Positions 10,746-45,041 of a stretch of DNA of 64,000 nt are shown piece by piece (position 1 is the first letter of the stretch; each line of letters starts with the position of its first letter). Both the position numbers and the translations under genes were made by a program. Source of the stretch: Escherichia phage AV125. The notes beneath the pieces were generated by a model that was given only the letters and a program-made list of their open reading frames with translations, made no database searches and was not told where the DNA came from. The stretch lies in sequence record OR352955.1, one strand, 5' to 3'.

Positions 10746-10922
10746 ATGTCTGAATTCTTCACAATGGCTTTCTTAGGGATCTATCTGATTATTAGTGCTG
10801 TTGGCTTAATCATGTCTCTAATAGAGGAAATGGGAATTAAGTGGAATTGTGCATTCGGTATAGCTCTTATGCTCACTCCAGTTTGGATCTACATTTGCAA
10901 ATCGGTTGAACTAATTGGTTAA
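10746..10922 (+). CDS. small membrane protein (58 aa)
   Basis: Hydrophobic segments; start moved to ATG 10746 just after upstream stop. Confidence 0.4.
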   Translation: MSEFFTMAFLGIYLIISAVGLIMSLIEEMGIKWNCAFGIALMLTPVWIYICKSVELIG

Positions 10923-11710: not shown

Positions 11711-11875
11711 ATGATTTTAAACTTCATCATCAACTTGTGTTTGACATTGGGGTTACTCTGTGCAATAGTATCCCCTTTGGTTGGTGAATATTGTTCTGAA
11801 CTGGCGATGTTTATAGTTCTTGGTGCGGCTATTGCTAATATGTTTGTCGCTGCGATTTGTATGTTGTGGGAATAG
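11711..11875 (+). CDS. small hydrophobic membrane peptide (54 aa)
   Basis: Own translation MILNFIINLCLTLGLLCAIVSPLVGEYCSELAMFIVLGAAIANMFVAAICMLWE after AGGAGAGA. Confidence 0.35.
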   Translation: MILNFIINLCLTLGLLCAIVSPLVGEYCSELAMFIVLGAAIANMFVAAICMLWE

Positions 11876-17097: not shown

Positions 17098-17205
17098 GAT
17101 ATCGCCCTTTCTTTGTTGTGCGCCCTGGTTGGCGCGGTAGAAAGATAATAGCCCTTTTCTTTATATATAGCAAGCAAAAAGAAAATAAAAAAGATTGAAA
17201 AATGG

Positions 17206-17263
17206 TTGACGTTAACCAGGCGGCGGCGTAGTATTCATCTTGTAGGGCGGCAATGGTGCCGCT
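17206..17263 (+). promoter_or_regulatory. early promoter + leader stem-loop cassette 1
   Basis: TTGACG 17206; -10 TAGTAT 17229; hairpin GCGGCA-atgg-TGCCGC 17246-17263. Confidence 0.55.
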
Positions 17264-17283
17264 CACTATTTGGAGTTAAGATC

Positions 17284-17481
17284 ATGGCAACATTGCACAT
17301 TGTGGCGAAAGCTGGACAAATCAACGTAGTGGTAAACGGTTTTACTGAGTTCAGTCACCCCCAGGATGATCATGAAACGGTTTTATCTTTCATTGATTCC
17401 CTGTTAGAAATGGGAGTCATTACAGAAGACCAGCACGCTACAAAATGCAAGCGCGTTAATCAAATTGCAGGAATAGAATAA
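17284..17481 (+). CDS. small early protein (65 aa)
   Basis: Start moved to ATG 17284 after GGAG; track start 17206 is TTG of -35 box. Confidence 0.5.
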   Translation: MATLHIVAKAGQINVVVNGFTEFSHPQDDHETVLSFIDSLLEMGVITEDQHATKCKRVNQIAGIE

Positions 17482-17487
17482 AAAGTA

Positions 17488-17547
17488 TTGACAACAAACA
17501 ACAACCTGATAAGATGTATCACATAGGGCGGCGGAATGGTCCACCGC
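17488..17547 (+). promoter_or_regulatory. early promoter + leader stem-loop cassette 2
   Basis: TTGACA 17488; TAAGAT 17510; hairpin GGCGGCGGA-atgg-TCCACCGC. Confidence 0.55.
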
Positions 17548-17572
17548 TCACAACAGAAGAGAGATTATCATC

Positions 17573-17845
17573 ATGGCATCATATAGCGCAACAATGATCG
17601 TAGCTGGCACCACTGGTAAACCTATGCGCGGTGGCGGATCTTTCGCTAATATCAATATTGACGGGCGTTTATCCCTGGACGCAGCGATCACCGTGGCGCG
17701 GGAAACATTTAAGAAAGAATGTAAATTCAATAAACAAGATTATCTCGGTTTTGCTATTGAAAAAACCGCGCGCTTTGTTGATTATAAAAGCCCGAAAATG
17801 GTTGACACTACATTAAAAGCGCAAGATGTAGCGTTTTTGTTTTAA
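17573..17845 (+). CDS. small early protein (90 aa)
   Basis: ORF track; AGAGAGA upstream. Confidence 0.5.
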   Translation: MASYSATMIVAGTTGKPMRGGGSFANINIDGRLSLDAAITVARETFKKECKFNKQDYLGFAIEKTARFVDYKSPKMVDTTLKAQDVAFLF

Positions 17846-17848
17846 GGC

Positions 17849-17904
17849 TTGACATTAACGAATAATTTGTTAATATGTTACATAAAGCGGGAATAGTTCC
17901 CGCT
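17849..17904 (+). promoter_or_regulatory. early promoter + leader stem-loop cassette 3
   Basis: TTGACA 17849; TAATAT 17871; hairpin GCGGGAA-tag-TTCCCGC. Confidence 0.55.
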
Positions 17905-17921
17905 ATTTGTAAGGTGGTAGA

Positions 17922-18179
17922 ATGTTTTACATCAAATTAAAAGGTCACGTGATCGCGTTCAAAGATAACGCTTTTTACAGATTAGCAAAATATGCGTTAA
18001 TACATCCCCACTATGTTTATATAAGGGGGCGTGATGAAATAAATATCTTTGATCAAACAACATGCGAGAACATCGAGATCCGCAAGGTTGGCGTACGTGA
18101 TTATCGTACATCTTTCTACCCTTGCAAGGATTCAGCAAGTCTTTTTAAAGTATGCCAATTGTTGAAAAAAGGTGGTTAA
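17922..18179 (+). CDS. small early protein (85 aa)
   Basis: ORF track. Confidence 0.5.
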   Translation: MFYIKLKGHVIAFKDNAFYRLAKYALIHPHYVYIRGRDEINIFDQTTCENIEIRKVGVRDYRTSFYPCKDSASLFKVCQLLKKGG

Positions 18180-18180
18180 T

Positions 18181-18738
18181 ATGGGCCGCGAATATGTGAT
18201 CCAGTCTTGGGTAAAACATGAAGCAGATGATCCGCGCATCATTCCCGATCATCTTATCGATGAATCCACGGGATATAGTGGTGAGCAAATAGGTAACAGA
18301 TTAGCACGTAGTAACGGCAACGTAAAAGCGCGTTATGTGCGCCCTGGCTGGCTGGCAAATGGTAACGCTGATTTATCCAGTGCGGAAGATGCGAGCGACG
18401 GCGCGAAAGATAATCCTTTGTACAAAGTTGATCCAGCTTTTCGTGTCCTGGATGAATACCCCAGCAAGATAGCGGCGCTCGATCAGGCCCTGGAAAGTAA
18501 GCGCATCACCTGGACCGCTTACAACATGGCAAAAAACGTACTTGATAGTAAATTGATTCAAGCTGAAAGAAAATTAGCCAAAATTGCAGCCATAGCCCAG
18601 GAGGAAGACGAGGAGACAACGGAAGAGGAAGAGTACGAAGAGATCCCGCCGTTGTTGTGTGTTGATGCTTTTCCTGATTATCAGCCGACAGAGGAAGAAA
18701 AAAGGATCGCACTAGAAAACTTTGAAAATAGTCTTTGA
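18181..18738 (+). CDS. hypothetical protein (185 aa), acidic C-terminal tail
   Basis: Track ORF 18172 (GTG) shortened to ATG 18181 after AAGGTGG. Confidence 0.5.
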   Translation: MGREYVIQSWVKHEADDPRIIPDHLIDESTGYSGEQIGNRLARSNGNVKARYVRPGWLANGNADLSSAEDASDGAKDNPLYKVDPAFRVLDEYPSKIAALDQALESKRITWTAYNMAKNVLDSKLIQAERKLAKIAAIAQEEDEETTEEEEYEEIPPLLCVDAFPDYQPTEEEKRIALENFENSL

Positions 18739-18791
18739 CATATCGCCGCCACTGGCATAATATTTACCACGTAGGGCGGCAATGGTGCCGC
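18735..18791 (+). promoter_or_regulatory. early promoter + leader stem-loop cassette 4
   Basis: TTGACA 18735; TAATAT 18758; hairpin GGGCGGCAATGGTGCCGC. Confidence 0.55.
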
Positions 18792-18820
18792 TCATAGTGA
18801 AATTATGCAAGAGGCTTACA

Positions 18821-18916
18821 ATGATTAATAAAGAAAATAGCTTGACGGTTGGAACGATTAACGCTATCATTCTAGCCGTTCCATTTTGGGTTGTAGTAGC
18901 GGCTATTATTTTCTAA
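18821..18916 (+). CDS. tiny hydrophobic peptide (31 aa)
   Basis: Own translation MINKENSLTVGTINAIILAVPFWVVVAAIIF after cassette 4. Confidence 0.3.
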   Translation: MINKENSLTVGTINAIILAVPFWVVVAAIIF

Positions 18917-18924
18917 AAATATTC

Positions 18925-18985
18925 TTGACAACGTTTTTTAATCTGATAAGATGTATCACATAGGGCGGCGGAATACTTCCCCGCC
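18925..18985 (+). promoter_or_regulatory. early promoter + leader stem-loop cassette 5
   Basis: TTGACA 18925; TAAGAT 18947; hairpin GGCGGCGGAATACTTCCCCGCC. Confidence 0.55.
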
Positions 18986-19006
18986 AAAACAAAAAAGGGT
19001 AACACA

Positions 19007-19369
19007 ATGAGCAAGCAAATCAATACTATCATGTTTAATCTGGTATCTTTCCGCGATGATATGAAAAATTTACCACGTGAAACGGTTGATATTCATGTTT
19101 CAGCTTATCGCGCCCTTATTGACATGTTACCGCTAAAACGTGATCAACATGCCGCTAATATGATGCTTAATGCTATGCTTAAAAAGATGATTCAAACGGA
19201 TCTTACTCTGGCGTATGAGTATCAAGGGCGCTTATATGCGACTTACAACAAAGCGGTACCTGGTCTGGGAAGTACCGAAGAGTTGCACGGCTTAAACCTG
19301 GATCAAAACACTTGGGATAGTATGCGCCGCGTTATGGTATGGGCCGAAAGCGGTAAAATTTACGAATAA
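19007..19369 (+). CDS. small early protein (120 aa)
   Basis: ORF track. Confidence 0.55.
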   Translation: MSKQINTIMFNLVSFRDDMKNLPRETVDIHVSAYRALIDMLPLKRDQHAANMMLNAMLKKMIQTDLTLAYEYQGRLYATYNKAVPGLGSTEELHGLNLDQNTWDSMRRVMVWAESGKIYE

Positions 19370-19375
19370 AAACGG

Positions 19376-19435
19376 TTGACACTGTTTAAAATGCTGGTAT
19401 AGTTTATCACATAGGGCGGGAAGTGGTTTCCCGCC
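19376..19435 (+). promoter_or_regulatory. early promoter + leader stem-loop cassette 6
   Basis: TTGACA 19376; TATAGT 19398; hairpin GGCGGGAA-gtggt-TTCCCGCC. Confidence 0.55.
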
Positions 19436-19457
19436 AACAATGAAAAAGGTTATCATC

Positions 19458-19823
19458 ATGGCTATTAATATTAATGTTTCCGCTTATGCTACCCTGGCTA
19501 ACACGGCTAAAATTGAATTATCCAGCATTGAGGCGGTGCATATTAGCGCCCGTCGCTGGTTTCAACAGTCCTACGGTAACACGTATTTTTCTTTAATGGT
19601 TGACGTTGAGATCGGCGGTAAACTGATCGAGGTGGTTAACGTTCCGTTTCAATATGGCTATGGTGATCATTTTGATACCGTCGCCCTGGAAGAATTTAGC
19701 AAGGTTATCAACCTTGAGGGCAAGGAATTTTCACGCGGCGCGTATCTTTCCCGTTTTTGCCGTGACAATGGGATCACTGTATACAGTCATGCAAGCGATG
19801 TTAAACGTAAAAAAGATCTATAA
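19458..19823 (+). CDS. small early protein (121 aa)
   Basis: Start moved to ATG 19458, the conserved atcatcATGgc context shared with other cassettes. Confidence 0.5.
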   Translation: MAININVSAYATLANTAKIELSSIEAVHISARRWFQQSYGNTYFSLMVDVEIGGKLIEVVNVPFQYGYGDHFDTVALEEFSKVINLEGKEFSRGAYLSRFCRDNGITVYSHASDVKRKKDL

Positions 19824-19829
19824 AAAGCA

Positions 19830-19888
19830 TTGACAGCACGAATAAAAAGAGTAAACTGTATTACATAGAGAGCGGGAACACTTCCCGC
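19830..19888 (+). promoter_or_regulatory. early promoter + leader stem-loop cassette 7
   Basis: TTGACA 19830; TAAACT 19852; hairpin GCGGGAA-cac-TTCCCGC. Confidence 0.55.
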
Positions 19889-19912
19889 CTCACTGAAAAA
19901 GAGAGAAAAATC

Positions 19913-20152
19913 ATGGCTAAATCTAAAATGTACAACGGTCACAAAAACAAAACTCATTGGAATGTAAGCCTGTGGATTAATAACGATGAGGGATTGTATC
20001 GGTTTGCATTGGGATTGATCAATGAGTGCGGTAATAAAGATCAGGCGGCTGATTTAATGTGCTACCGTTTGAAACAGGATGGAATCACTACAACGCCAGA
20101 CGGCTTTAAGTATAGTAAAACTGCAATCCGCGCCGCTATGGTTGGAATGTAA
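19913..20152 (+). CDS. small early protein (79 aa)
   Basis: ORF track. Confidence 0.5.
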   Translation: MAKSKMYNGHKNKTHWNVSLWINNDEGLYRFALGLINECGNKDQAADLMCYRLKQDGITTTPDGFKYSKTAIRAAMVGM

Positions 20153-20161
20153 TAAAAACAG

Positions 20162-20221
20162 TTGACAACGTTTAAAATTAGTGTAAGATGTATCACATAG
20201 GGCGGGAAGTGGTTTCCCGCC
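20162..20221 (+). promoter_or_regulatory. early promoter + leader stem-loop cassette 8
   Basis: TTGACA 20162; TAAGAT 20184; hairpin GGCGGGAAGTGGTTTCCCGCC. Confidence 0.55.
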
Positions 20222-20243
20222 AACAACAGAGAGATTAAAGATT

Positions 20244-20471
20244 ATGGCTATCAATATTGTTCGTGTATCCGGCACCGTTGGCAGTTCCCAGGTTGTAGCA
20301 GTTGTAACAAACAAAAAGATTAATGATGTATGTGAGATCTTGAATAAGTGGGCTATTGCTAATTTTGGGGAATATGCAAGCGTTGAGTACATCGAATCCT
20401 GCCAGGTGCCGACCATCAGCCTAACCGATCTCAACGTTGATCGCCTGTTATGCCTGGATGAATTAATCTGA
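20244..20471 (+). CDS. small early protein (75 aa)
   Basis: ORF track. Confidence 0.5.
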   Translation: MAINIVRVSGTVGSSQVVAVVTNKKINDVCEILNKWAIANFGEYASVEYIESCQVPTISLTDLNVDRLLCLDELI

Positions 20472-20480
20472 AAAAGATTG

Positions 20481-20536
20481 TTGACACGGGAAAGAAAAAG
20501 AGTAAACTGTATTACGTAGGGCGGCAATAGTGCCGC
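20481..20536 (+). promoter_or_regulatory. early promoter + leader stem-loop cassette 9
   Basis: TTGACA 20481; TAAACT 20503; hairpin GGCGGCA-atag-TGCCGC. Confidence 0.55.
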
Positions 20537-20561
20537 TCACAACAGAAGAGAGATTATCACG

Positions 20562-20777
20562 ATGGCTAATATCCGTACACTGTTAAAAAATGCAAGTCAA
20601 GTTTTATTTTCAGATGACGAGTATTTCAACAAAGACATTACAGGCGTGAAAAATTTAAAAGACGTGAAGGATGTTATCGGTATCCGTGGATCTTTACGTA
20701 AAGGTGATATATACGGTAACAAGGTGCAATATAAACTGTCAAAAGATTATGATTTTACTTTGACAATTATTTCATAA
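20562..20777 (+). CDS. small early protein (71 aa)
   Basis: ORF track. Confidence 0.5.
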   Translation: MANIRTLLKNASQVLFSDDEYFNKDITGVKNLKDVKDVIGIRGSLRKGDIYGNKVQYKLSKDYDFTLTIIS

Positions 20778-20783
20778 AACCGC

Positions 20784-20845
20784 TTGCAATCTTAATAAAA
20801 TAAAGTAAACTGTATTACATCAAGGCGGCGGAATGGTCCACCGCC
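20784..20845 (+). promoter_or_regulatory. early promoter + leader stem-loop cassette 10
   Basis: TTGCAA 20784; TAAACT 20806; hairpin GGCGGCGGAATGGTCCACCGCC. Confidence 0.5.
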
Positions 20846-20869
20846 TAACAAAGAGAAGAGGAAAATATT

Positions 20870-21037
20870 ATGATCACTTTCGCTACCCGTGAAGCCGCTC
20901 GCAACGTTGCCCGTAAAGTTAACGCCGCCAACCTGGGCGCTACACTTAAAGCCCCGGTAAAAGATGCATCAGGCGCGTGGATCTTCCCTGGTCTGCGTCA
21001 CGCTGATAAGCTAGGCACTTTAAGCCTTAAAAAATAA
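20870..21037 (+). CDS. small early protein (55 aa)
   Basis: Own translation MITFATREAARNVARKVNAANLGATLKAPVKDASGAWIFPGLRHADKLGTLSLKK; not in ORF track (below 60 aa). Confidence 0.4.
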   Translation: MITFATREAARNVARKVNAANLGATLKAPVKDASGAWIFPGLRHADKLGTLSLKK

Positions 21038-21040
21038 TCG

Positions 21041-21078
21041 TTGACTTTTCGTTATAGCGCCTTATAATGGGCGCTATA
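21041..21078 (+). promoter_or_regulatory. early promoter cassette 11, variant in which the stem-loop encloses the -10 box
   Basis: TTGACT 21041; TATAAT 21063 lies in loop of TAGCGCC...GGCGCTA hairpin. Confidence 0.45.
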
Positions 21079-21111
21079 GAGAAGAGAAACCACTACTAAC
21101 AAGGAAACATC

Positions 21112-21333
21112 ATGATCACTTTCGCTATTGTCGCCGTTGTCGCTGGTCAGGTTTACGTAAACGAGACATTTACTACAGAAGACAAGGCCGCAGGAGATAT
21201 AACCGCCGTTTACAACGAGTGCAAGGCAGTAGAAAGGATGTTAGCGCCTTGTATGCTAATGAGTGAACGCCAGGACGGGATAACAGTATTTACTAACATT
21301 GAAACAGGGTACCAAATGGTAGTAACAAAATAA
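21112..21333 (+). CDS. small early protein (73 aa)
   Basis: ORF track; N-terminus MITFA shared with 20870 ORF. Confidence 0.5.
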   Translation: MITFAIVAVVAGQVYVNETFTTEDKAAGDITAVYNECKAVERMLAPCMLMSERQDGITVFTNIETGYQMVVTK

Positions 21334-21336
21334 AGC

Positions 21337-21393
21337 TTGACACGGATTTAATTTTCAGTAAACTGTTACACGTAGGGCGGGAATAGTTCCCGC
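21337..21393 (+). promoter_or_regulatory. early promoter + leader stem-loop cassette 12
   Basis: TTGACA 21337; TAAACT 21359; hairpin GCGGGAATAGTTCCCGC. Confidence 0.55.
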
Positions 21394-21412
21394 TCAAAAA
21401 GAGAGAAAGACC

Positions 21413-21766
21413 ATGAAAGCACAAAATGCAATTAAAGAGTACATCCTTGCCGCTATCGATTTTAATGATTACGGTATTACAACCGAAAAAGAGAAGATCG
21501 CGGAATTGATGCGCCGTTTTAATTCCGAGTACTGGTACCCTGATAACCAATCACGTTTTAATTATAGTATTGTTAAAGCACTTGCATCATGGTTACAAGG
21601 TTTGCCATCAGATATCAATATCGCTTTCGAATATTGGGAAATTGATCGCCTGTTAACATCCTGGGGATACATTAAAGAGAATAGCCGCGATGATAAAATC
21701 CAACGAGAAAGGGAAAATTATTGGCTTTATATTGCAGGCGTGATCCTTGCTTGCTCTTATGAATGA
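21413..21766 (+). CDS. small early protein (117 aa)
   Basis: ORF track. Confidence 0.55.
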   Translation: MKAQNAIKEYILAAIDFNDYGITTEKEKIAELMRRFNSEYWYPDNQSRFNYSIVKALASWLQGLPSDINIAFEYWEIDRLLTSWGYIKENSRDDKIQRERENYWLYIAGVILACSYE

Positions 21767-21772
21767 TAAACC

Positions 21773-21826
21773 TTGACAATTTTACAAAACAGTTTAAATT
21801 AACAATATAGCGGCAATGGTGCCGCT
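21773..21826 (+). promoter_or_regulatory. early promoter + leader stem-loop cassette 13
   Basis: TTGACA 21773; TAAATT near 21795; hairpin GCGGCAATGGTGCCGC. Confidence 0.5.
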
Positions 21827-21845
21827 CATATGAAGAGGAAACAAA

Positions 21846-21992
21846 ATGAATACATCTAATCGCGCAGAAAAAATTCAATCTTCCAAGATCCGCAAGGCCT
21901 GGAACGAGGAAGTGATCCGCAAAGGCGACAAGCGTAATAAAACAAAGCGCGGGAAGAGTGACAAATATAATTGGATGGATTTAGAGGATTAA
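21846..21992 (+). CDS. small basic protein (48 aa)
   Basis: Own translation MNTSNRAEKIQSSKIRKAWNEEVIRKGDKRNKTKRGKSDKYNWMDLED. Confidence 0.35.
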   Translation: MNTSNRAEKIQSSKIRKAWNEEVIRKGDKRNKTKRGKSDKYNWMDLED

Positions 21993-22000
21993 CATAACAA

Positions 22001-22026
22001 GGGCGCATCAAGCGCCCTTTCTTTTT
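22001..22026 (+). terminator. intrinsic terminator (copy 1 of a repeated terminator)
   Basis: GGGCGC-atcaa-GCGCCC then TTTCTTTTT; identical hairpin at 26912. Confidence 0.65.
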
Positions 22027-22047
22027 ACATGTAGAGGATAAACAAAA

Positions 22048-22233
22048 ATGACTTTAAACGAGCTTAAAACAGCCTACAACGCAACATTAAAAATAGCTGT
22101 GCGTTACCGTGATGCGTACGGTTTTATCGCGCAGGGCGTGATCCTGGGCTTTTCTGACGATGGTTTGATCTATGTTGATGCACATCACAACAAGGTTAAA
22201 CCGGAAAACGTTATCAATATAAAATATCTTTAA
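22048..22233 (+). CDS. small early protein (61 aa)
   Basis: ORF track. Confidence 0.45.
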   Translation: MTLNELKTAYNATLKIAVRYRDAYGFIAQGVILGFSDDGLIYVDAHHNKVKPENVINIKYL

Positions 22234-22239
22234 AAGTGG

Positions 22240-22298
22240 TTGACACCATAACCGGACCTGTTAAACTGTATTACATCAGGCGGGGAATAGTTCCCCAC
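22240..22298 (+). promoter_or_regulatory. early promoter + leader stem-loop cassette 14
   Basis: TTGACA 22240; TAAACT 22262; hairpin GGGGAA-tag-TTCCCC. Confidence 0.55.
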
Positions 22299-22318
22299 CA
22301 TACAAAAAGGTAAATATT

Positions 22319-22525
22319 ATGATCACCGCAAAACAAGAAAAAATCATTATCGACGTTGCAGCCGTTGCCGCTATTGCTATTATTGGATCTTATTATGATA
22401 CCCGTTTCCCGTCGGCTATGCATGAGATCGCCGCCGTTGCATCAGTTGGCGTGCTGTTTTACGTTGGTAAACGCTATTTATCACCAATGATTAACAAGCT
22501 GACACCGTGGAAAAATAAAGGTTGA
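22319..22525 (+). CDS. small membrane protein (68 aa)
   Basis: ORF track; hydrophobic IIIDVAAVAAIAIIGSYY. Confidence 0.5.
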   Translation: MITAKQEKIIIDVAAVAAIAIIGSYYDTRFPSAMHEIAAVASVGVLFYVGKRYLSPMINKLTPWKNKG

Positions 22526-22576
22526 TCCTGTTTTACATTGTGTTATAGTTATCGTGTAGGGCGGCAATGGTGCCGC
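22522..22576 (+). promoter_or_regulatory. early promoter + leader stem-loop cassette 15
   Basis: TTGATC 22522; TATAGT 22544; hairpin GGCGGCAATGGTGCCGC. Confidence 0.5.
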
Positions 22577-22596
22577 GCCCCTTTGAGGATGCAATC

Positions 22597-22881
22597 ATGA
22601 GTAAAGCTAACACCGTGCTAATGTTTTCCCTGATTAATGATCTCGCTTACTTGTCCAACATGACGCAGGAGGGTAACACATTAACGGCAACATTCACCAA
22701 TAAGCTTGACCGAGTGATCATCATCTCACTGAAAACAGTTAGTAAAGGCTTTTACTCGTTAGCTTATCATTGGATCACCGATACCGATGAGACAAGCCAG
22801 GACTATAGCGCCCCTTTTCCTGAATCAATGGCACGGGAGATCATCGCCGCCGTTGTAAATGATGGTTTGTTTACTGCATAA
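22597..22881 (+). CDS. small early protein (94 aa)
   Basis: Start moved to ATG 22597 after GAGGATG; track start 22567 lies in the hairpin loop. Confidence 0.5.
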   Translation: MSKANTVLMFSLINDLAYLSNMTQEGNTLTATFTNKLDRVIIISLKTVSKGFYSLAYHWITDTDETSQDYSAPFPESMAREIIAAVVNDGLFTA

Positions 22882-22898
22882 ATAATTTAGAAAAAGGC

Positions 22899-22955
22899 TT
22901 GCAATCATTTTGAGATAGTGTATATTTAATTCATAGGGCGGCGGGAATAGTTCCC
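22899..22955 (+). promoter_or_regulatory. early promoter + leader stem-loop cassette 16
   Basis: TTGCAA 22899; TATATT 22921; hairpin GGGAA-tag-TTCCC. Confidence 0.5.
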
Positions 22956-22978
22956 AAAGCAAATGAGAGGATTACACG

Positions 22979-23098
22979 ATGAGCAAGTACACAGTAGAAT
23001 ACACGGTAGAAAATCCGGCAGTATCCGAAGGTAAAAAGATGACATTTGCCATCAGTATAATCGCTTTCGTTGTCACTATCTTATCAATCATCTTATAA
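22979..23098 (+). CDS. tiny membrane peptide (39 aa)
   Basis: Own translation MSKYTVEYTVENPAVSEGKKMTFAISIIAFVVTILSIIL after GAGAGGA. Confidence 0.35.
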   Translation: MSKYTVEYTVENPAVSEGKKMTFAISIIAFVVTILSIIL

Positions 23099-23108
23099 GG
23101 TGCACACC

Positions 23109-23270
23109 ATGAAAATAGCAGACATTATCAAAGAGATCGCCCTTGCCGCTGGCGTTGAGGTCGAGGAAGTGATCGCGCTCAATCTTACAGAAAACGATCT
23201 GCGCAACTATGAAGCGGAAAGCGTGAAAGCAAGCGGCGCGGTCCTGGTATATGATCCGGCTAACAAGTAA
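23109..23270 (+). CDS. small early protein (53 aa)
   Basis: Start at ATG 23109; track start 23070 would lie inside the preceding peptide gene. Confidence 0.4.
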   Translation: MKIADIIKEIALAAGVEVEEVIALNLTENDLRNYEAESVKASGAVLVYDPANK

Positions 23271-23390
23271 GGGGATAACATGAATCCGAAAGATATGCAA
23301 GCATGGAAAGGGTACGACGATCTAAGCGCCTTGCGCAATAAGTCAAGCCGTAACCTTAGACGGTTGGAAGCAAAGAAAAAGAAAAAATAG

Positions 23391-23446
23391 TTTGACAAGT
23401 CCGCGTAGTCTGGTAATATGTATCTTGTAGGGCGGCAATGGTGCCG
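23391..23446 (+). promoter_or_regulatory. early promoter + leader stem-loop cassette 17
   Basis: TTGACA 23391; TAATAT 23413; hairpin GGGCGGCAATGGTGCCGC. Confidence 0.55.
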
Positions 23447-23468
23447 CTCACAAGAAGAGAGAAAAATC

Positions 23469-23753
23469 ATGAAAATCACAAAAAGCCTGACTAATTATGC
23501 AGCACGTCGCGGATTATGTTTAACTGTTGAAAACTTAGGGAAAGAAGACTTTTTGTGTTTTTGGGAGCTTGAAAATGATTGCGAGTGGATGTTTTCTTAT
23601 TCTATCTGCGAAGATCAAAACGGTTGTTTGTTAACTTGGCGCGGTAATATCTATTTACCGGAAGAAATTAAAGAAGAGTTACCAGGTACGATCATGACAG
23701 AGAGACAGCTTAAGGAAGTGATCAATTTTGTAGGGCAAAACATTAAAAAATAA
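23469..23753 (+). CDS. small early protein (94 aa), cysteine/tryptophan-rich
   Basis: Start moved to ATG 23469; track start 23418 lies in the hairpin loop. Confidence 0.5.
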   Translation: MKITKSLTNYAARRGLCLTVENLGKEDFLCFWELENDCEWMFSYSICEDQNGCLLTWRGNIYLPEEIKEELPGTIMTERQLKEVINFVGQNIKK

Positions 23754-23754
23754 T

Positions 23755-23816
23755 TTGACAACAGGCAAACAACGTAGTAAAGTTTATTACATAGAGCGGC
23801 GGAATGGTCCACCGCT
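23755..23816 (+). promoter_or_regulatory. early promoter + leader stem-loop cassette 18
   Basis: TTGACA 23755; TAAAGT 23778; hairpin GCGGCGGAATGGTCCACCGC. Confidence 0.55.
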
Positions 23817-23838
23817 CACAACAGAAGAGAAACAAATC

Positions 23839-24009
23839 ATGATCCCGACTATGTTTTATGTATCGCGCAAAGGTCACAATATTTTTTGGTCTGAAGATTT
23901 AAATGAAGCTATGACGTTTGCCCGTGATCGTGTTGCTATCGGTGGCGTTAACATCACCGTAACCGATGAAAATGGCATTGAATACTATAACGGCAACGAT
24001 GAAGAATAA
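23839..24009 (+). CDS. small early protein (56 aa)
   Basis: Start ATG 23839 (MIPTMFYVSRKGHNIFW...); track start 23755 lies in promoter. Confidence 0.45.
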   Translation: MIPTMFYVSRKGHNIFWSEDLNEAMTFARDRVAIGGVNITVTDENGIEYYNGNDEE

Positions 24010-24015
24010 TTAATG

Positions 24016-24038
24016 AGGCGGGGGAGTATTCCCCGCCG
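24016..24038 (+). promoter_or_regulatory. intercistronic leader stem-loop with no promoter upstream
   Basis: GGCGGGGGA-gtat-TCCCCGCC immediately before RBS of 24057 gene. Confidence 0.5.
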
Positions 24039-24056
24039 TCAATAAAGAGGTAAATC

Positions 24057-24326
24057 ATGAAAATATCATTGGACGTTGCAATCAAGGCCATCGAATCCGG
24101 TTACATCCTGGTAAAAGATGATAAGGCTAAAACCGTGCACCACGTTAACAAAGAAACAGGCGAAAGCATGATCACATATAAAGCCGCCTACTTTCTCCAA
24201 TCAGTAGCAGATCCGCGCGTACAACGCCAGGTTACAGCGGCTATTGCTAAAAAATTATGTGCTTTACAGGGTATAAGTTTTAACGAGATCGCCCCGTGTT
24301 TTGACTGGTCGAGCTTGAAAAAATAG
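24057..24326 (+). CDS. small early protein (89 aa)
   Basis: ORF track. Confidence 0.5.
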   Translation: MKISLDVAIKAIESGYILVKDDKAKTVHHVNKETGESMITYKAAYFLQSVADPRVQRQVTAAIAKKLCALQGISFNEIAPCFDWSSLKK

Positions 24327-24327
24327 T

Positions 24328-24389
24328 TTGACAACAATTATAAATCGGGTAGAATGTATTTCGTAGGGCGGGGCAATAAGGCAACGCCC
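24328..24389 (+). promoter_or_regulatory. early promoter + variant leader stem-loop cassette 19
   Basis: TTGACA 24328; TAGAAT 24350; hairpin GGGCG...CGCCC. Confidence 0.5.
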
Positions 24390-24407
24390 ATTAATGAGGG
24401 TAGAATC

Positions 24408-24512
24408 ATGTTAGAGAAAATTTTCACGGTTGTAATAGTGGGCCTGGCGTTATCGGTTGGAGGGGTTGCAACTATGGCTAACATGATCCTATCTTCCCAC
24501 GGTATCGGCTAA
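24408..24512 (+). CDS. tiny membrane peptide (34 aa)
   Basis: Own translation MLEKIFTVVIVGLALSVGGVATMANMILSSHGIG. Confidence 0.3.
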   Translation: MLEKIFTVVIVGLALSVGGVATMANMILSSHGIG

Positions 24513-24522
24513 GGTGAAACAA

Positions 24523-24738
24523 ATGATCACGAATAAGACAGGTAAAACGGAATTTTTACGCGGCTTGCAAGTTGGTAAACCTGAGATCTGGCATTGTACT
24601 AAATCCGCGCATAATGAAATGAAAGATTTTACCGCTACTTTACAACGTGTTAAAATATCTATCACACAGAAAAAAGCCTTGTTAGTAGTAGAAAACGAGA
24701 TCCCGCAAACTATTATTATTGTCGAGCGTACAGCATGA
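24523..24738 (+). CDS. small early protein (71 aa)
   Basis: Track ORF 24514 (GTG) shortened to ATG 24523 after AAGGTG. Confidence 0.45.
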   Translation: MITNKTGKTEFLRGLQVGKPEIWHCTKSAHNEMKDFTATLQRVKISITQKKALLVVENEIPQTIIIVERTA

Positions 24739-25121
24739 AAACAGAAATCATTATTGAAATCATCAACGGTTATAAAGAAGCCTTTATTTTTGCTGAATCA
24801 GCAAGGGATCATGAAGGTAATTTTATTGAAAACTTAGACGATTATGATTTTTCTCCTAGCGCGGACGAACGGATCGCCCAGGATGTAACAGCCTTTATTA
24901 ATGCTAATCTTGCCGCTATCTCTGAGGCAATGAGCGACGGCGCAACAGCCAACCAGATCGGGAATGATTTACATTTTACCCGTAACGGTCACGGCGTAGG
25001 CTTTTGGGATCGCCCTGAAATATACACCACTAACACGGCGAACCGCCTAACCAATGCAGCTAAGTTTATGCCGAACGTGTCGGCTTACATTGGTGAAGAT
25101 AATTTGATTTATATTGAATAA
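24735..25121 (+). CDS. small early protein (128 aa)
   Basis: ATGA overlap with upstream gene. Confidence 0.55.
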   Translation: MKTEIIIEIINGYKEAFIFAESARDHEGNFIENLDDYDFSPSADERIAQDVTAFINANLAAISEAMSDGATANQIGNDLHFTRNGHGVGFWDRPEIYTTNTANRLTNAAKFMPNVSAYIGEDNLIYIE

Positions 25122-25127
25122 AAAGTA

Positions 25128-25183
25128 TTGACACAGATCGCCAGTGTGCTAATATTTACCACGTAGGGCGGCAATGGTGCCGC
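25128..25183 (+). promoter_or_regulatory. early promoter + leader stem-loop cassette 20
   Basis: TTGACA 25128; TAATAT 25150; hairpin GGGCGGCAATGGTGCCGCC. Confidence 0.55.
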
Positions 25184-25202
25184 CGATAATGAGGAAAGTA
25201 AA

Positions 25203-25502
25203 ATGGAAACTATCGCTATTGTTACCGTAGAAAAACTGGTTGTTGGTGATGTATTCGCGTTAATGGTGCCTAACAGCAGCAAGCTGGGCGCTTATGAAGT
25301 AATGGATCATAAAAATGAATCATTTGGCGACGGTTGCACAATGGCGGTAAAATCTTTAAAGGATGGAATCATCCGCCAGGCTAACTGGCACAAAGGGAAT
25401 CAAGTCGGTTTAATATCAGCTAATTTCTTGCCAGAAGAGCAAACGTTAGACCAACTATCAGGCGGTAAGACGTTAGCCGAACTACTGGAAACAGCGATCT
25501 AA
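25203..25502 (+). CDS. small early protein (99 aa)
   Basis: ORF track. Confidence 0.55.
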   Translation: METIAIVTVEKLVVGDVFALMVPNSSKLGAYEVMDHKNESFGDGCTMAVKSLKDGIIRQANWHKGNQVGLISANFLPEEQTLDQLSGGKTLAELLETAI

Positions 25503-25510
25503 TCAACAAA

Positions 25511-25526
25511 GGGGCGGCAACGCCCC
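25511..25526 (+). promoter_or_regulatory. intercistronic GNRA-type stem-loop
   Basis: GGGGCG-gcaa-CGCCCC, no T-run; precedes RBS of 25547 gene. Confidence 0.45.
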
Positions 25527-25546
25527 ACATCAGAAAGGAAAAGATT

Positions 25547-25783
25547 ATGAGTATTGCAACAGTATTAAACGCCGTTAAAACCGCTGAATCATCCGGCTTG
25601 CATGTTGAGCTTATAGATCAACCAGGTGGCGATCTCCTTGTCCAGGTTTACCCGCCGAAAGTAGGGGATGATTATTATTGGGCTTATTCTGATACGTTCG
25701 AACAAGTAGACACGAAAGCGATCACGGCTTTTATTTTAAAAGCTATTGAAGAAAATAACTTTCATCATAACATCAATCAATAA
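25547..25783 (+). CDS. small early protein (78 aa)
   Basis: ORF track. Confidence 0.5.
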   Translation: MSIATVLNAVKTAESSGLHVELIDQPGGDLLVQVYPPKVGDDYYWAYSDTFEQVDTKAITAFILKAIEENNFHHNINQ

Positions 25784-25792
25784 ACCATAAGC

Positions 25793-25808
25793 GGGGCGGT
25801 AACGCCCC
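25793..25808 (+). promoter_or_regulatory. intercistronic GNRA-type stem-loop
   Basis: GGGGCG-gtaa-CGCCCC, no T-run; precedes 25838 gene. Confidence 0.45.
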
Positions 25809-25837
25809 ATTAAACGCAATAGGAAGAGGATAGACGC

Positions 25838-26128
25838 ATGAAAAAGATGATCGCAGTAGTTGCCCTGGTTGTTGGTATTAACGCGCCTGTACTGGCTAAT
25901 GAGTTGCCAGAATCCATCACGCTAACCGATATCAACGCAATAAACCGGATCGGCGTTAATTATCGCCTATGCCTTGCCGCTAAAACTTTCCAGGACGGCA
26001 CGACAGAATACCACGGATTCGAGGGTATCCGCTGCGGTGAGCTTGCACGCGACCTTAAGGAAGATCCAGACCTTGAGGCCATACCGATGACCGTAAACGG
26101 TAAAGCTTACGTAAACCGCCAACAATGA
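25838..26128 (+). CDS. predicted secreted protein (96 aa)
   Basis: Signal-peptide-like MKKMIAVVALVVGINAPVLA. Confidence 0.55.
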   Translation: MKKMIAVVALVVGINAPVLANELPESITLTDINAINRIGVNYRLCLAAKTFQDGTTEYHGFEGIRCGELARDLKEDPDLEAIPMTVNGKAYVNRQQ

Positions 26129-26259
26129 GAAAGGTAATCATCACAATGGGGATCATAGTAGCGACACTGGCGCTTATCCCCTTCATGGTTGAATATGTGC
26201 TGATCAGTGTTGTCCTGGTAGTCAGTGACCTATTGGAAACGGTTGGCAACTGGTTTTAA
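26125..26259 (+). CDS. tiny membrane peptide (44 aa)
   Basis: Own translation MRKVIITMGIIVATLALIPFMVEYVLISVVLVVSDLLETVGNWF; ATGA overlap. Confidence 0.35.
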   Translation: MRKVIITMGIIVATLALIPFMVEYVLISVVLVVSDLLETVGNWF

Positions 26260-26436
26260 AAATAAGAAAAACAGGACTTGTTTTTGTTCTGTTTTTTGTT
26301 ATACTTATTGAACGGGCGGCACCTGGAAGCAGGGGAAGATAATCACCGGAAGACCCCGCTATATATTGATAACTAACGCCTATCAAACAACAAAACATCA
26401 AAGGAATAAACTATCAAATCTTTACAATTCTACCTA

Positions 26437-26480
26437 TTGACACCGGATCACGCTTACACTATTATTTATCACGTAGGGCA
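26437..26480 (+). promoter_or_regulatory. early promoter with conserved leader start but no stem-loop (cassette 21)
   Basis: TTGACA 26437; TATTAT 26460; TATCACGTAGGGC leader. Confidence 0.5.
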
Positions 26481-26511
26481 AACAATTTTAAACGGTAAAC
26501 GAGGAATCACC

Positions 26512-26895
26512 ATGAGCAATATCATCAACCTGGCAGCGACTGTAAACGGTAAAGACTTTAACGGCGCTGTAGACCGTGATCCTATGTGGTGCTTGTCAGT
26601 GTTTAAAGGCGATCTGGTTGAAGTTAGAACAACCGAAGGTTATAGCGATGATTATAAATGCGAGATTCATTTACATAATTGGTACACGGGTAAAACTTAT
26701 GCGCTGAATCACGCGTTTATCGGGAAAATTGAATATCGCGAGATGATCGACGATGAAACGGGGCAAGATTTTAGCGAAAACGTTTATATTCGTTCCGAGA
26801 CATTAGCCGAACGTTTGATCGAGAAAATGAAAGCAAAAAATAAAATTAATTTATCTCATTGGATTGATATAACAAATGATCCGGCTTATCAGTAA
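26512..26895 (+). CDS. hypothetical protein (127 aa)
   Basis: Start moved to ATG 26512 after GAGGAA; track start 26437 is the TTG of the -35 box. Confidence 0.55.
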   Translation: MSNIINLAATVNGKDFNGAVDRDPMWCLSVFKGDLVEVRTTEGYSDDYKCEIHLHNWYTGKTYALNHAFIGKIEYREMIDDETGQDFSENVYIRSETLAERLIEKMKAKNKINLSHWIDITNDPAYQ

Positions 26896-26911
26896 ATAAC
26901 ATTTCATACCA

Positions 26912-26937
26912 GGGCGCATCAAGCGCCCTTTCTTTTT
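26912..26937 (+). terminator. intrinsic terminator (copy 2 of repeated terminator)
   Basis: GGGCGC-atcaa-GCGCCC then TTTCTTTTT, identical to 22001-22026. Confidence 0.65.
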
Positions 26938-26999
26938 GCCCGAATAATGTTGATAGCTTTCGCCTATGAAAAACCGACACAGAACAAAACTGAATAAAT

Positions 27000-27420
27000 C
27001 ACGGTATCGAGCTAATCGACCATTAAACGAATAACCATACATCCCAGGGCAACAGGCTGTTAGAGAGCTATTTAGAGCGGTTAAAATCGATCAACAACCA
27101 ACAACAAACCATCAAAAACACCCTTTTACCTCTTTTCTAGTGCAATGATAACCATTATCATCTATCATTGATTATCTATTCAATATAAGTGCATAACTAT
27201 AATGTTGATAATAGTTCGCAACAACTAACCAACAAACAACATAAAACAATAAGCAAACTAATCATAATCAAAGGAATAATAGCAAGATGACTGATAACGA
27301 CAAACAATCAAACCATGATGAATATTAAACAAGATAACGATAACACGACAAAACAACCAACTAACGAACAATAACAAACGAAACCATTAAAAGATCAACT
27401 ATTAGCAAAATAGTGTATAT
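27000..27420. other. noncoding A/C-rich tract, strongly G- and T-depleted on plus strand
   Basis: Long runs such as aaccaacaaacaacataaaacaataagcaaactaatcataatc; no ORF on either strand. Confidence 0.6.
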
Positions 27421-27505
27421 TGCCATAATAGTGACTGAATGAAATCATTACAAAACGAATCATTCCAAGGATCATCATTAGCACGCTACGCCGGACACGT
27501 AGCGA

Positions 27506-27633
27506 GCTAATAATAAGCCAACTACACCCCAACAATCATAACCATCGGTGATGGTTATTTCTTGTTACTGCGTAGCTTGCAATAATTGCAAGCGTAATGA
27601 CGCTTACACTTATTGCGCTGGCTTATTATTAGC
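27506..27633. repeat. 128-bp element bounded by perfect 15-bp inverted repeats, with nested palindromes
   Basis: GCTAATAATAAGCCA (27506-27520) vs TGGCTTATTATTAGC (27619-27633); inside: ATAACCATC-ggt-GATGGTTAT (27538-27558), TTGCAAT-a-ATTGCAA (27577-27591), AAGCGT-aatg-ACGCTT. Confidence 0.6.
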
Positions 27634-28091
27634 ATTATATGTAATTACTAAGATCATAACATTAGCGCAATAACAATAATCATTGTAATAGTTACAAGAT
27701 GAGATCATTAGCAAGATGAATAATTGCACGTAGCAACATGAGCGAATAGCGACAGGTTGCATAGTGTGCACATAGTGTATAAACATACAAGAAAATAAAG
27801 GCTAATCTTTTGGGGGCGAATACTATCGCTACGCGATATGTTGAGCACCTTCTCTTAAACGTAAATAAAATCAGAATAATCTTGATTTATTTTAGTTTTT
27901 ATGTTAATAAACGTTTAAATAATAATCATTCTCATATAAATAATAGTCTGCTTGTCATGAGCGGGATCAGTTGACAATGTTCCGTCATATGATGAAGTTG
28001 CCAAACCATTGATAAATAAGTGTTTGTGTGATTTATAATCAAGTGGCCCACCTTGTCGCTACGTTGGTATGAGCCTTGCATAAGTCATTGA

Positions 28092-28120
28092 ATACGAATG
28101 ATAATTATTCTCATTCGTAT
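28092..28120. promoter_or_regulatory. operator-like inverted repeat sharing the ATGAGAA/TTCTCAT half-site
   Basis: ATACGAATGA-taattattc-TCATTCGTAT; related AATCATTCTCAT at 27924-27935. Confidence 0.45.
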
Positions 28121-28456
28121 GATATTTGGGAATTGTCGCTGCGTGGACCTGACGGCCCGAAAATTCGCGTTAAGCACTTCTTACGTATGCGCCATGATTT
28201 TTGCCATATGATATTGATTCTATTAGATATTCTTGCCATGATTGCCATGAAACAGGGTGTCCCGAAATAATCTCTCCCCGTAGATATTTTGGGTTACTTT
28301 TTATACAAGAGTGGGGTGTCAAAAATAATCGGTATATATAGGATAATTGATAGGAATCCCCTATGATAATTCGATTGTAATTCCCTAAGATTGATCGTAT
28401 GATGTTGGTGATTGATGATTGCCATGAAAGATGGCTAACGATGAGAGGAGATTGTC

Positions 28457-44939: not shown

Positions 44940-45041
44940 ATGGTTTCATTTATCGTAGGTGTAGTTGTAGGCTATCTTATTAACAAATATCAAGACGTTA
45001 TCACGGCAAAAGTAAAAGACATTTTAGACTCATCTAAATAA
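44940..45041 (+). CDS. tiny membrane peptide (33 aa)
   Basis: Own translation MVSFIVGVVVGYLINKYQDVITAKVKDILDSSK after AAGGAGAAATA. Confidence 0.3.
   Translation: MVSFIVGVVVGYLINKYQDVITAKVKDILDSSK

Follow-up and report, generated by a model that had tools for sequence, protein, structure and literature searches.

Four putative genes for single-helix membrane peptides in a promoter-driven small-gene array of Escherichia phage AV125

A stretch of 64,000 nucleotides (nt) from Escherichia phage AV125 (sequence record OR352955.1; hereafter the window) was analyzed for short open reading frames (ORFs) that encode hydrophobic peptides. Four of these ORFs, referred to below as p18821, p22979, p24408 and p26125, are probably genuine genes, maintained by selection, that encode small inner-membrane peptides of an early array. 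Taken separately, the ORFs are very likely translated, judging from their coding signals and conservation, and their products are likely inner-membrane peptides, as hydrophobicity predicts; a modulating effect of the peptides on host envelope proteins, exclusion or defense is a tentative proposal, drawn by analogy. The ORFs are largely catalogued already, mostly as hypothetical or membrane proteins, and nothing points to a new kind of system.

Small hydrophobic ORFs in the window

Hydrophobicity was scored as the Kyte-Doolittle maximum over 19 residues, for which the conventional membrane-span cut-off is approximately 1.6. The ORFs considered were as follows (aa, amino acids; SD, Shine-Dalgarno sequence).

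18821-18916, + strand: p18821, 31 aa, Kyte-Doolittle 2.63, MINKENSLTVGTINAIILAVPFWVVVAAIIF
22979-23098, + strand: p22979, 39 aa, Kyte-Doolittle 2.69, MSKYTVEYTVENPAVSEGKKMTFAISIIAFVVTILSIIL
24408-24512, + strand: p24408, 34 aa, Kyte-Doolittle 2.24, MLEKIFTVVIVGLALSVGGVATMANMILSSHGIG
26125-26259, + strand: p26125, 44 aa, Kyte-Doolittle 2.61, MRKVIITMGIIVATLALIPFMVEYVLISVVLVVSDLLETVGNWF
11711-11875, + strand: 54 aa, Kyte-Doolittle 2.45, two hydrophobic segments, strong SD (AGGAG), in a separate tightly packed gene block
44940-45041, + strand: 33 aa, Kyte-Doolittle 1.19, weakly hydrophobic, N-terminus hydrophobic over a short stretch, C-terminal half charged
10746-10922, + strand: 58 aa, two hydrophobic segments, SD GGAG

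The first six had been named in a preliminary description of this DNA, which missed 10746-10922, and all six were recovered at the positions it gave, each initiated with ATG. The four main ORFs were borne out as single-helix hydrophobic peptides of 31-44 aa, with one segment each and values of 2.24-2.69 over 19 residues, and all four have the size and shape of small single-pass membrane proteins (at most 50 aa and one bilayer-spanning segment), which neither 11711 nor 44940 has. These last two had been called similar to the four; 11711 is indeed hydrophobic but carries two segments, and 44940 is doubtful as a membrane helix. The ribosome-binding sites that had been reported were found at the proper distance for p18821 (AGAGG), p22979 (GAGAGGA) and p24408 (GAGGGT) but not for p26125, which has no SD. 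The peptides had also been called recurrent, which is accurate for a class of small hydrophobic peptides and not for a family: a single repeated peptide family was rejected, as pairwise sequence similarity between the peptides was absent.

For a census, all ATG-initiated ORFs of 25-60 aa on the + strand were collected, and those with a 17-residue value of at least 2.2 were counted as hydrophobic. Among 249 ORFs, 19 had an SD, 18 were hydrophobic and 5 had both, compared with approximately 1.4 expected under independence. The five were 18821, 22979, 24408, 11711 and 10746-10922; the minus strand has one. In 200 first-order Markov random sequences, the mean number of hydrophobic ORFs with an SD was 0.15 per strand and the maximum was 2. 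Small ORFs that combine an SD with hydrophobicity exceed chance.

Conservation and coding evidence

Region 18000-27000 aligned along its entire length (100%) with Escherichia phage KKP 3954, at 95.8% identity, and approximately 230 further records also matched, mostly from Phapecoctavirus and Justusliebigvirus, with Vequintavirinae more distant. By these matches, the window is assigned to a phAPEC8-like virulent E. coli myovirus of the genus Phapecoctavirus, subfamily Stephanstirmvirinae, with a genome of roughly 150 kb. For comparison of the four ORFs, 13-16 related loci were taken from GenBank phages and IMG/VR, giving 6-14 sequences per ORF; with a neighboring 128-aa gene as query, three close relatives were found in IMG/VR.

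All homologues of the four ORFs were intact in diverged relatives, those of another subfamily included, and their length was constant except for p18821, which is extended to 34 aa in phi92 and to 39 aa in Klebsiella phage 05F01. Variable columns at codon positions 1, 2 and 3, respectively, numbered 8, 4 and 13 for p18821, 16, 19 and 30 for p22979, 8, 5 and 16 for p24408, and 21, 9 and 31 for p26125. Synonymous changes were in excess, with a ratio of nonsynonymous to synonymous differences per site (pN/pS) of 0.18-0.66 in divergent pairs (Nei-Gojobori). Because the frames are intact, their length is near constant, the variation is biased to third positions and pN/pS is below 1, the four ORFs are judged to be under purifying selection as proteins.

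Each of three families also keeps a motif beyond hydrophobicity: ATMAN.ILS..GIG in p24408, V.Y.V.NPA..EG.K in p22979 and KKENSLTVG..N...PF in p18821. In contrast, a conserved non-coding element of approximately 60 nt downstream of p26125 (approximately 26300-26368, TTATTGAACGGGCGGCACCTGGAAGCAGGGGAAGATAATCACCGGAAGACCCCGCTATAT) tolerates insertions and deletions (indels) of 1-2 nt. Conservation of this element amounts to 78-95% among Phapecoctavirus, Justusliebigvirus and Vequintavirinae. As a candidate small ORF, the element was rejected because of these indels, though BASEL records annotate a 26-29-aa TTG-initiated ORF there; its RNAalifold consensus structure was weak, and no match to it was found in Rfam.

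Frames left open by chance in non-coding DNA (leader or spacer), hydrophobic from T-rich codons and yielding no functional peptide, would account for ORFs this short that many GenBank records leave unannotated, and 18 of the 249 small + strand ORFs were hydrophobic with non-coding frames included. Chance frames would not, however, be expected to stay intact and near constant in length across relatives of 56-98% identity, with third-position bias, pN/pS below 1 and retained motifs; nor do they explain the SD sites and dedicated promoters, the five ORFs observed against 0.15 in random sequences, or the contrast with the non-coding element at 26300-26368 and its indels of 1-2 nt. Chance is therefore regarded as a highly improbable source of the four ORFs.

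Promoter cassettes and variability of the array

In a simple gene map, the four ORFs belong to an array at approximately 17.3-26.9 kb, where some 30 genes coding for 31-185 aa all run along the + strand. The gaps between them are remarkably uniform, at approximately 75-97 nt, and the genes are divided into approximately 25 very short transcription units, each with a consensus sigma-70-type promoter. Nearly every gap (17206-26481, + strand) contains a cassette made up of an A-rich tract, TTGACA, a 16-17-nt spacer and a -10 box, followed by CAC(A/G)TAGGGCGG, which opens a GC-rich hairpin at the predicted 5' end of the transcript, and then by the SD and ATG; examples on the + strand are 18735-18793, 18925-18985 and 24328-24389. 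A cassette of this kind directly precedes p18821, p22979 and p24408. A consensus scan of both strands gave 46 promoter-like sites against 24 expected, located upstream of most genes in 17200-26500, and the motif CACRTAGGGCGG occurred 16 times against 2.4 expected. When the predicted 5' untranslated regions (UTRs) were folded with RNAfold, hairpins of -11 to -17 kcal/mol were obtained in 17 of 20 units, with several alternative stem sequences in use. The Paula record labels the array hairpins as minus-strand terminators. The placement of the peptides inside an early array, as the preliminary description had it, stands as to location within a promoter-driven small-gene array, whereas "early" was inferred from promoter type alone.

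Genes of the array are present or absent, repositioned or allele-swapped between genera. Gene order varies between genera, and the block of p18821 and gene 19007 is placed differently in Justusliebigvirus. Across 17573-26128, the identity to close relatives shifts from gene to gene in a mosaic; neighboring genes are, for example, 100% and 67-69% identical to those of tuntematon. The mosaic identity and the changes in order are consistent with recombination at the repeated cassettes. Arrays of the relatives carry other, unrelated small hydrophobic peptides, mostly unannotated, among them a 31-aa peptide, MPYLHLFFGILL... (MPYLHLFF...), that precedes the Justusliebigvirus p22979 allele by approximately 100 nt. 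At least eight one-helix peptide families were found across the relatives examined. Gain and loss, movement and allele swapping of this kind are typical of accessory host-interaction genes. Small hydrophobic peptides of relatives lie at the following comparison loci.

L004:11642-11737 (phi92): small hydrophobic peptide
L003:7228, L005:8494 and L006:3901: small hydrophobic peptides
L008:9366: small hydrophobic peptide
L010:3395-3520 and L010:3504-3623 (EduardKellenberger): 41-aa and 39-aa peptides, respectively

p24408

The operon led by the 34-aa peptide p24408 is preceded by two features.

24328..24355, + strand: promoter TTGACA-16-TAGAAT, 11 of 12 matches
24366..24389, + strand: hairpin in the 5' UTR of the operon, RNAfold -14.9 kcal/mol

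p24408 has a single membrane helix and is the first cistron; gene 24523 begins 10 nt past its stop, with an SD that overlaps that stop (TAAGGTG). The peptide matched phrog_14631 over its full length (expect value [E] 6e-21, 34 of 34 profile positions), and the 34-codon ORF was intact in 14 of 14 sequences, among them copies from Vequintavirinae with 76% and 56% identity. Compared with the 76%-identical UPEC06 copy, pS was 0.67 and pN 0.12 (pN/pS 0.18). No variation was seen in the C-terminal half, G18..ATMAN.ILS..GIG, not even in the RudolfGeigy variant at 56% identity (MKQKLIDAVILVIALGIGLIATMANVILSSNGIG). Within this half, G18, T22, N25, S29 and G32 form a small/polar stripe along one helical face, which we infer to be the signature of a specific helix-helix interface.

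With tblastn, full-length p24408 was found in 218 phage records of Stephanstirmvirinae and Vequintavirinae, many of which leave it unannotated: among 28 high-identity matches sampled, 17 lacked a feature over the ORF and 2 more were records without any annotation. A host-mimicry or prophage origin was examined with the back-translated motif ATMAN[MV]IL and rejected, as it was present in 6 unrelated metagenome-assembled genomes in 596 gigabases (Gb), compared with approximately 6.5 expected by chance. The p24408 region was not found in any of 5,426 complete E. coli genomes, and neither E. coli genomes nor 185,579 bacterial species genomes contained the peptides. Since the p24408 motif is not above chance in bacterial genomes and the region is absent from complete E. 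coli genomes, the ORFs are taken to be genes of virulent phages and not host or prophage genes.

p18821 and p22979

The units of the 31-aa and 39-aa peptides begin with the following features.

18735..18763, + strand: promoter TTGACA-17-TAATAT (consensus scan), driving the p18821 unit
18774..18793, + strand: GC-rich 5' hairpin GGGCGGCA-ATGG-TGCCGCTC, 5' UTR RNAfold -14.7 kcal/mol
22899..22926, + strand: promoter-like site TTGCAA-16-TATATT upstream of p22979
approximately 22943-22955, + strand: weaker hairpin, 5' UTR fold -7.9 kcal/mol

p18821 consists of a short polar N-terminus and a hydrophobic helix that runs to the C-terminus. It is 31 aa long in Phapecoctavirus and Justusliebigvirus, with pN/pS of 0.15-0.50, and was found by tblastn in 107 phage records, annotated in many; no PHROG family matched it. 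p18821 is monocistronic: the promoter of gene 19007 (18925-18952) starts 9 nt past its stop.

p22979 has a 20-residue polar N-terminal segment followed by a C-terminal membrane helix. It is a first cistron whose stop is overlapped by the SD of gene 23109 (TAAGGTG), with a 10-nt spacer. It matched phrog_10979, "membrane protein", over its full length (E 6e-23, 39 of 39 profile positions) and was found by tblastn in 67 records, being named "membrane protein" in RefSeq phAPEC8 and in tuntematon. Two 39-codon alleles exist that are approximately 40% identical; they have the motif V.Y.V.NPA..EG.K in common, differ all along the helix and keep it in hydrophobicity only. As both p18821 and p22979 end with the helix, they would be tail-anchored, and because the N-terminal motif is conserved while the helix keeps only its hydrophobicity, this conserved soluble segment suggests a short binding motif anchored to the membrane.

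If p22979 and p24408 were leader cistrons, their translation would open or couple the downstream gene (23109 and 24523, respectively) and the peptide would be incidental. Both are first cistrons behind a promoter cassette, and their stops overlap the next SD with a 10-nt spacer, which speaks for such a role. Against this, amino-acid motifs are kept while synonymous sites change, as between p24408 and its UPEC06 copy, and both p22979 alleles have the same length and motif although they are approximately 40% identical. Moreover, gene 24523 is missing in phi92 and in L013 (IMGVR_UViG_3300045988_074297), where p24408 precedes the homologue of gene 24735, and p18821 has no second cistron to lead. 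A leader function with an incidental peptide is considered very unlikely, and protein-coding selection on the peptides themselves is preferred.

p26125 and its upstream gene

p26125 is the last gene of its transcription unit and is flanked as follows.

25838..26128, + strand: partner gene, 96 aa, N-terminus signal-peptide-like (MKKMIAVVALVVGINAPVLA), two conserved cysteines
26266..26297, + strand: terminator-like hairpin and T-run directly 3' of p26125, closing its unit

The ATG of p26125 overlaps the TGA stop of 25838-26128 (ATGA), which suggests that p26125 is translationally coupled to that gene. p26125 has an N-terminal membrane helix at approximately residues 4-22 that runs into an amphipathic C-terminal half. 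It matched phrog_16005 over its full length (E 3e-29, 44 of 44 profile positions) and was represented by 25 protein clusters in a database of 5.8 billion proteins, all from this phage group and all "hypothetical"; tblastn found it in 70 phage records, and pN/pS was 0.36-0.51. Its Vequintavirus homologues have 44 codons. In EduardKellenberger, whose homologue is 64% identical, Ile occupies position 8; the conserved start is therefore that of the 44-aa form, and the shorter internal start of some gene callers was ruled out.

An AlphaFold2 model of p26125 (16-sequence alignment) predicted one continuous helix over residues 2-43 with a predicted local distance difference test (pLDDT) score of 93.8. 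Residue 23 varies between E, R and K and is placed, on account of this switching, probably at the membrane interface; the polar face of residues 24-44 is narrow (S28, S34/D35, E38/T39, N42). The 25838 protein matched phrog_9845 over its full length, and its homologues were all at least 69% identical. Its AlphaFold2 model was of low confidence (pLDDT 65, other models 36-43), and a Foldseek search of this model against the PDB gave no match with E below 0.06.

The two genes adjoin in 6 of 6 loci that have either one, and both are absent from 6 Justusliebigvirus-type loci. Strict co-occurrence and the start/stop overlap, seen in two subfamilies, would be expected if the peptides served the phage's own machinery, with p26125, for example, anchoring the secreted 25838 protein; the adjacency of the p24408 operon to the 25838/p26125 pair in Vequintavirus points in the same direction. 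p26125 is, however, alone among the peptides in having such a partner, and the partner has no functional or fold match. As Justusliebigvirus lacks both genes, the pair is not needed for the life cycle that these phages share. A role in phage machinery is accordingly rated as unlikely, and action on the host envelope is the function considered below.

Catalogue status and homology searches

Five of the six ORFs named in the preliminary description matched PHROG families. phrog_10979 is a "membrane protein" family and the other four are of unknown function. The 11711 ORF matched phrog_27459 over its full length (E 1e-38, 54 of 54 profile positions) and was found in 70 phage records, annotated as hypothetical. 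The 44940 ORF matched phrog_11666 (E 1e-12, 48 of 49 profile positions) and was found in 126 records, including phi92 gp032. ORF 10746-10922 matched phrog_22639 over its full length (E 1.5e-42). No Pfam match above threshold was found for the six peptides, and none in NCBIfam, PADLOC or PDB chains. Homology to Imm or Sp was not found in Pfam, PHROG and NCBIfam scans of the peptides or in PHROG and Pfam scans of the 25838 partner. A role as inhibitors of host membrane proteins or as superinfection exclusion factors, which the preliminary description had raised for such peptides, is reasonable as a hypothesis but gained no backing from these searches.

Proposed function

In the function proposed for the four peptides, host RNA polymerase would transcribe their genes immediately after infection, and the products would enter the E. 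coli inner membrane, leaving the N-terminus on the cytoplasmic side. Positive charges precede each helix (K4 in p18821, K19-K20 in p22979, K4 in p24408 and R2-K3 in p26125), and this N-in/C-out topology is predicted because Lys/Arg residues N-terminal of the helix follow the positive-inside rule. Bacterial small membrane proteins have been described as essentially one transmembrane domain, and 27-aa YohP as inserted via the signal recognition particle (PMC7549839); interactions of small membrane proteins have been reviewed (PMC12648545).

Once inserted, the peptides would bind to larger proteins of the membrane or envelope, each family by a contact surface of its own. For p24408, this surface would be the invariant small/polar stripe G18-T22-N25-S29-G32; for p22979 and p18821, the conserved juxtamembrane N-terminal motif. 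In p26125, the amphipathic C-terminal half probably works together with a periplasmic partner. The role would likely be an accessory one in host-envelope modification, e.g., takeover, exclusion of competitor phages or counter-defense, and probably not one in core replication or assembly. That p24408 is a dedicated intramembrane ligand of a conserved E. coli inner-membrane machine or of a membrane-bound defense effector and, more broadly, that the cassettes shuffle unrelated one-helix modulators of the host envelope, is a speculative and rather doubtful extension.

Several points weigh against this interpretation. Few substitutions underlie the pN/pS values, which were taken from ORFs of 31-44 codons, and a number of close pairs carry no information. 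Since the gene that follows p22979 or p24408 starts only 10 nt farther on, translational coupling could account for part of their conservation. Early timing of the array is inferred solely from its consensus promoters, and such promoters are found genome-wide in rV5 (PMC3606486). The neighboring genes (ten tested) belong to PHROGs of unknown function, except 26512-26895 (Pfam Phage_30_8, Gp30.8-like), and give no functional clue. A search of the literature found no transcriptomic, ribosome profiling, localization or phenotype data for this phage group, and homology to any characterized protein was not found in the family scans.

Hok/TisB/Ldr-type toxins and small holins resemble the peptides in size and shape. 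If the peptides were membrane-damaging effectors of the type I toxin or holin kind, they would depolarize or permeabilize the host for shut-off or for the timing of lysis. p26125, which joins a membrane helix to an amphipathic half, and p24408, with a glycine/small-residue stripe typical of self-associating helices, would suit such a role, and a holin homologue was not discovered in the rV5 genome (PMC3606486). The peptides, however, had no match to holin or type I toxin models in Pfam, NCBIfam and PHROGs: the best holin match had an E of 0.09 and concerned p44940 alone, and the models of Hok/Gef, Ldr, TisB, Ibs and ShoB gave no Pfam or NCBIfam match at E up to 1. The genes lie in a small-gene array driven by host promoters and not beside an endolysin, and a lysozyme domain was found in none of the ten neighbors tested. 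Early depolarization would presumably harm the energy supply of the phage. An antisense regulator was not evident; the candidates were putative, minus-strand consensus promoter-like matches only (e.g., 24653-24626). Membrane damage is thus considered quite unlikely, and modulation of envelope proteins remains the preferred function.

The practical value of these results lies in annotation. The ORFs are probably real genes that are called inconsistently, with p24408 unannotated in approximately two thirds of the annotated high-identity records sampled, and pipelines with cut-offs of 50-60 aa miss such genes. Variable, host-promoter-driven arrays of large virulent coliphages appear to carry many unrelated one-helix membrane peptides. 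As relatives of phAPEC8, phi92 and rV5 are used in phage-therapy cocktails, effects of the peptides on envelope physiology, exclusion and drug efflux would be of interest. The most interesting possibility, if true, is a pan-lineage p24408 with a conserved host membrane target.

Other features of the region

At the end of the array, 26900-28450 is an ORF-poor stretch of approximately 1.5 kb with only short scattered repeats, in which tRNA genes, Rfam families and tandem repeats were looked for and none were found; a similar "non-coding" block has been described for rV5. No Rfam family was found in the window. Two very basic small ORFs, 23280-23390 (36 aa, ending in KKKKK) and 21846-21992 (48 aa, K/R-rich), are conserved and annotated in relatives. 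The 71-aa protein of 20562-20777 is called "phosphoribosylpyrophosphate synthetase" in several records; it is far too short for that enzyme, and the label looks like a propagated mis-annotation. In the match lists, phages named Campylobacter, Acinetobacter, Pseudomonas and "Dompiswa" were 90-97% identical to these E. coli phages, which suggests mislabeled hosts or contaminating coliphages in those isolations.

Comparison with known systems

The closest counterparts are the PHROG families and annotated relatives themselves (tuntematon gp029 and gp044; the phAPEC8 "membrane protein"; BASEL bas59_0121 and bas59_0124), with which the ORFs share length, position and neighbors. They differ in that p18821 stands outside PHROG and in that annotation is inconsistent, many records omitting p24408, p18821 or p26125.

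Among bacterial proteins, the peptides resemble the AcrZ, MgrB, MgtS, SgrT and YohP class in having fewer than 50 aa, approximately one transmembrane helix and no enzymatic domain (PMC7549839, PMC12648545). As in the AcrZ/MgrB class, family-specific residues in or next to the helix suggest binding of a partner. Unlike that class, the peptides are phage-encoded, and they have no sequence similarity to it in NCBIfam and Pfam.

The T4 Imm, Sp and ac products are small and are made early; Imm, of approximately 83 aa, and Sp, of approximately 97 aa, are larger than the peptides described here. They share with these peptides, as proposed, that they are encoded by phages and alter the envelope of the host (PMC11436027, PMC13250531): through imm and sp, T4 blocks the injection of DNA and the degradation of peptidoglycan (PMC11436027), and ac is assumed to act on AcrAB-TolC (PMC13250531). 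The 25838 protein, predicted to be periplasmic, and p26125 in the membrane resemble a membrane-plus-periplasm exclusion pair in location only.

The array as a whole has a parallel in rV5, where 88 mainly small ORFs form a block and where 33 sigma-70-type promoters and 15 transmembrane-domain proteins have been described (PMC3606486). It also resembles the PeSL (early promoter and stem-loop) cassettes of T4-type phages (PMC2839356, PMC4122927). The array belongs to another lineage (Stephanstirmvirinae/Vequintavirinae), has another consensus (CACRTAGGGCGG) and is known here from its sequence. In common with PeSL cassettes, it pairs strong sigma-70-like promoters with a conserved GC-rich stem-loop, repeated between the many small, non-essential genes of a variable region, and the gene order and allele mosaics of relatives differ at the cassette boundaries.

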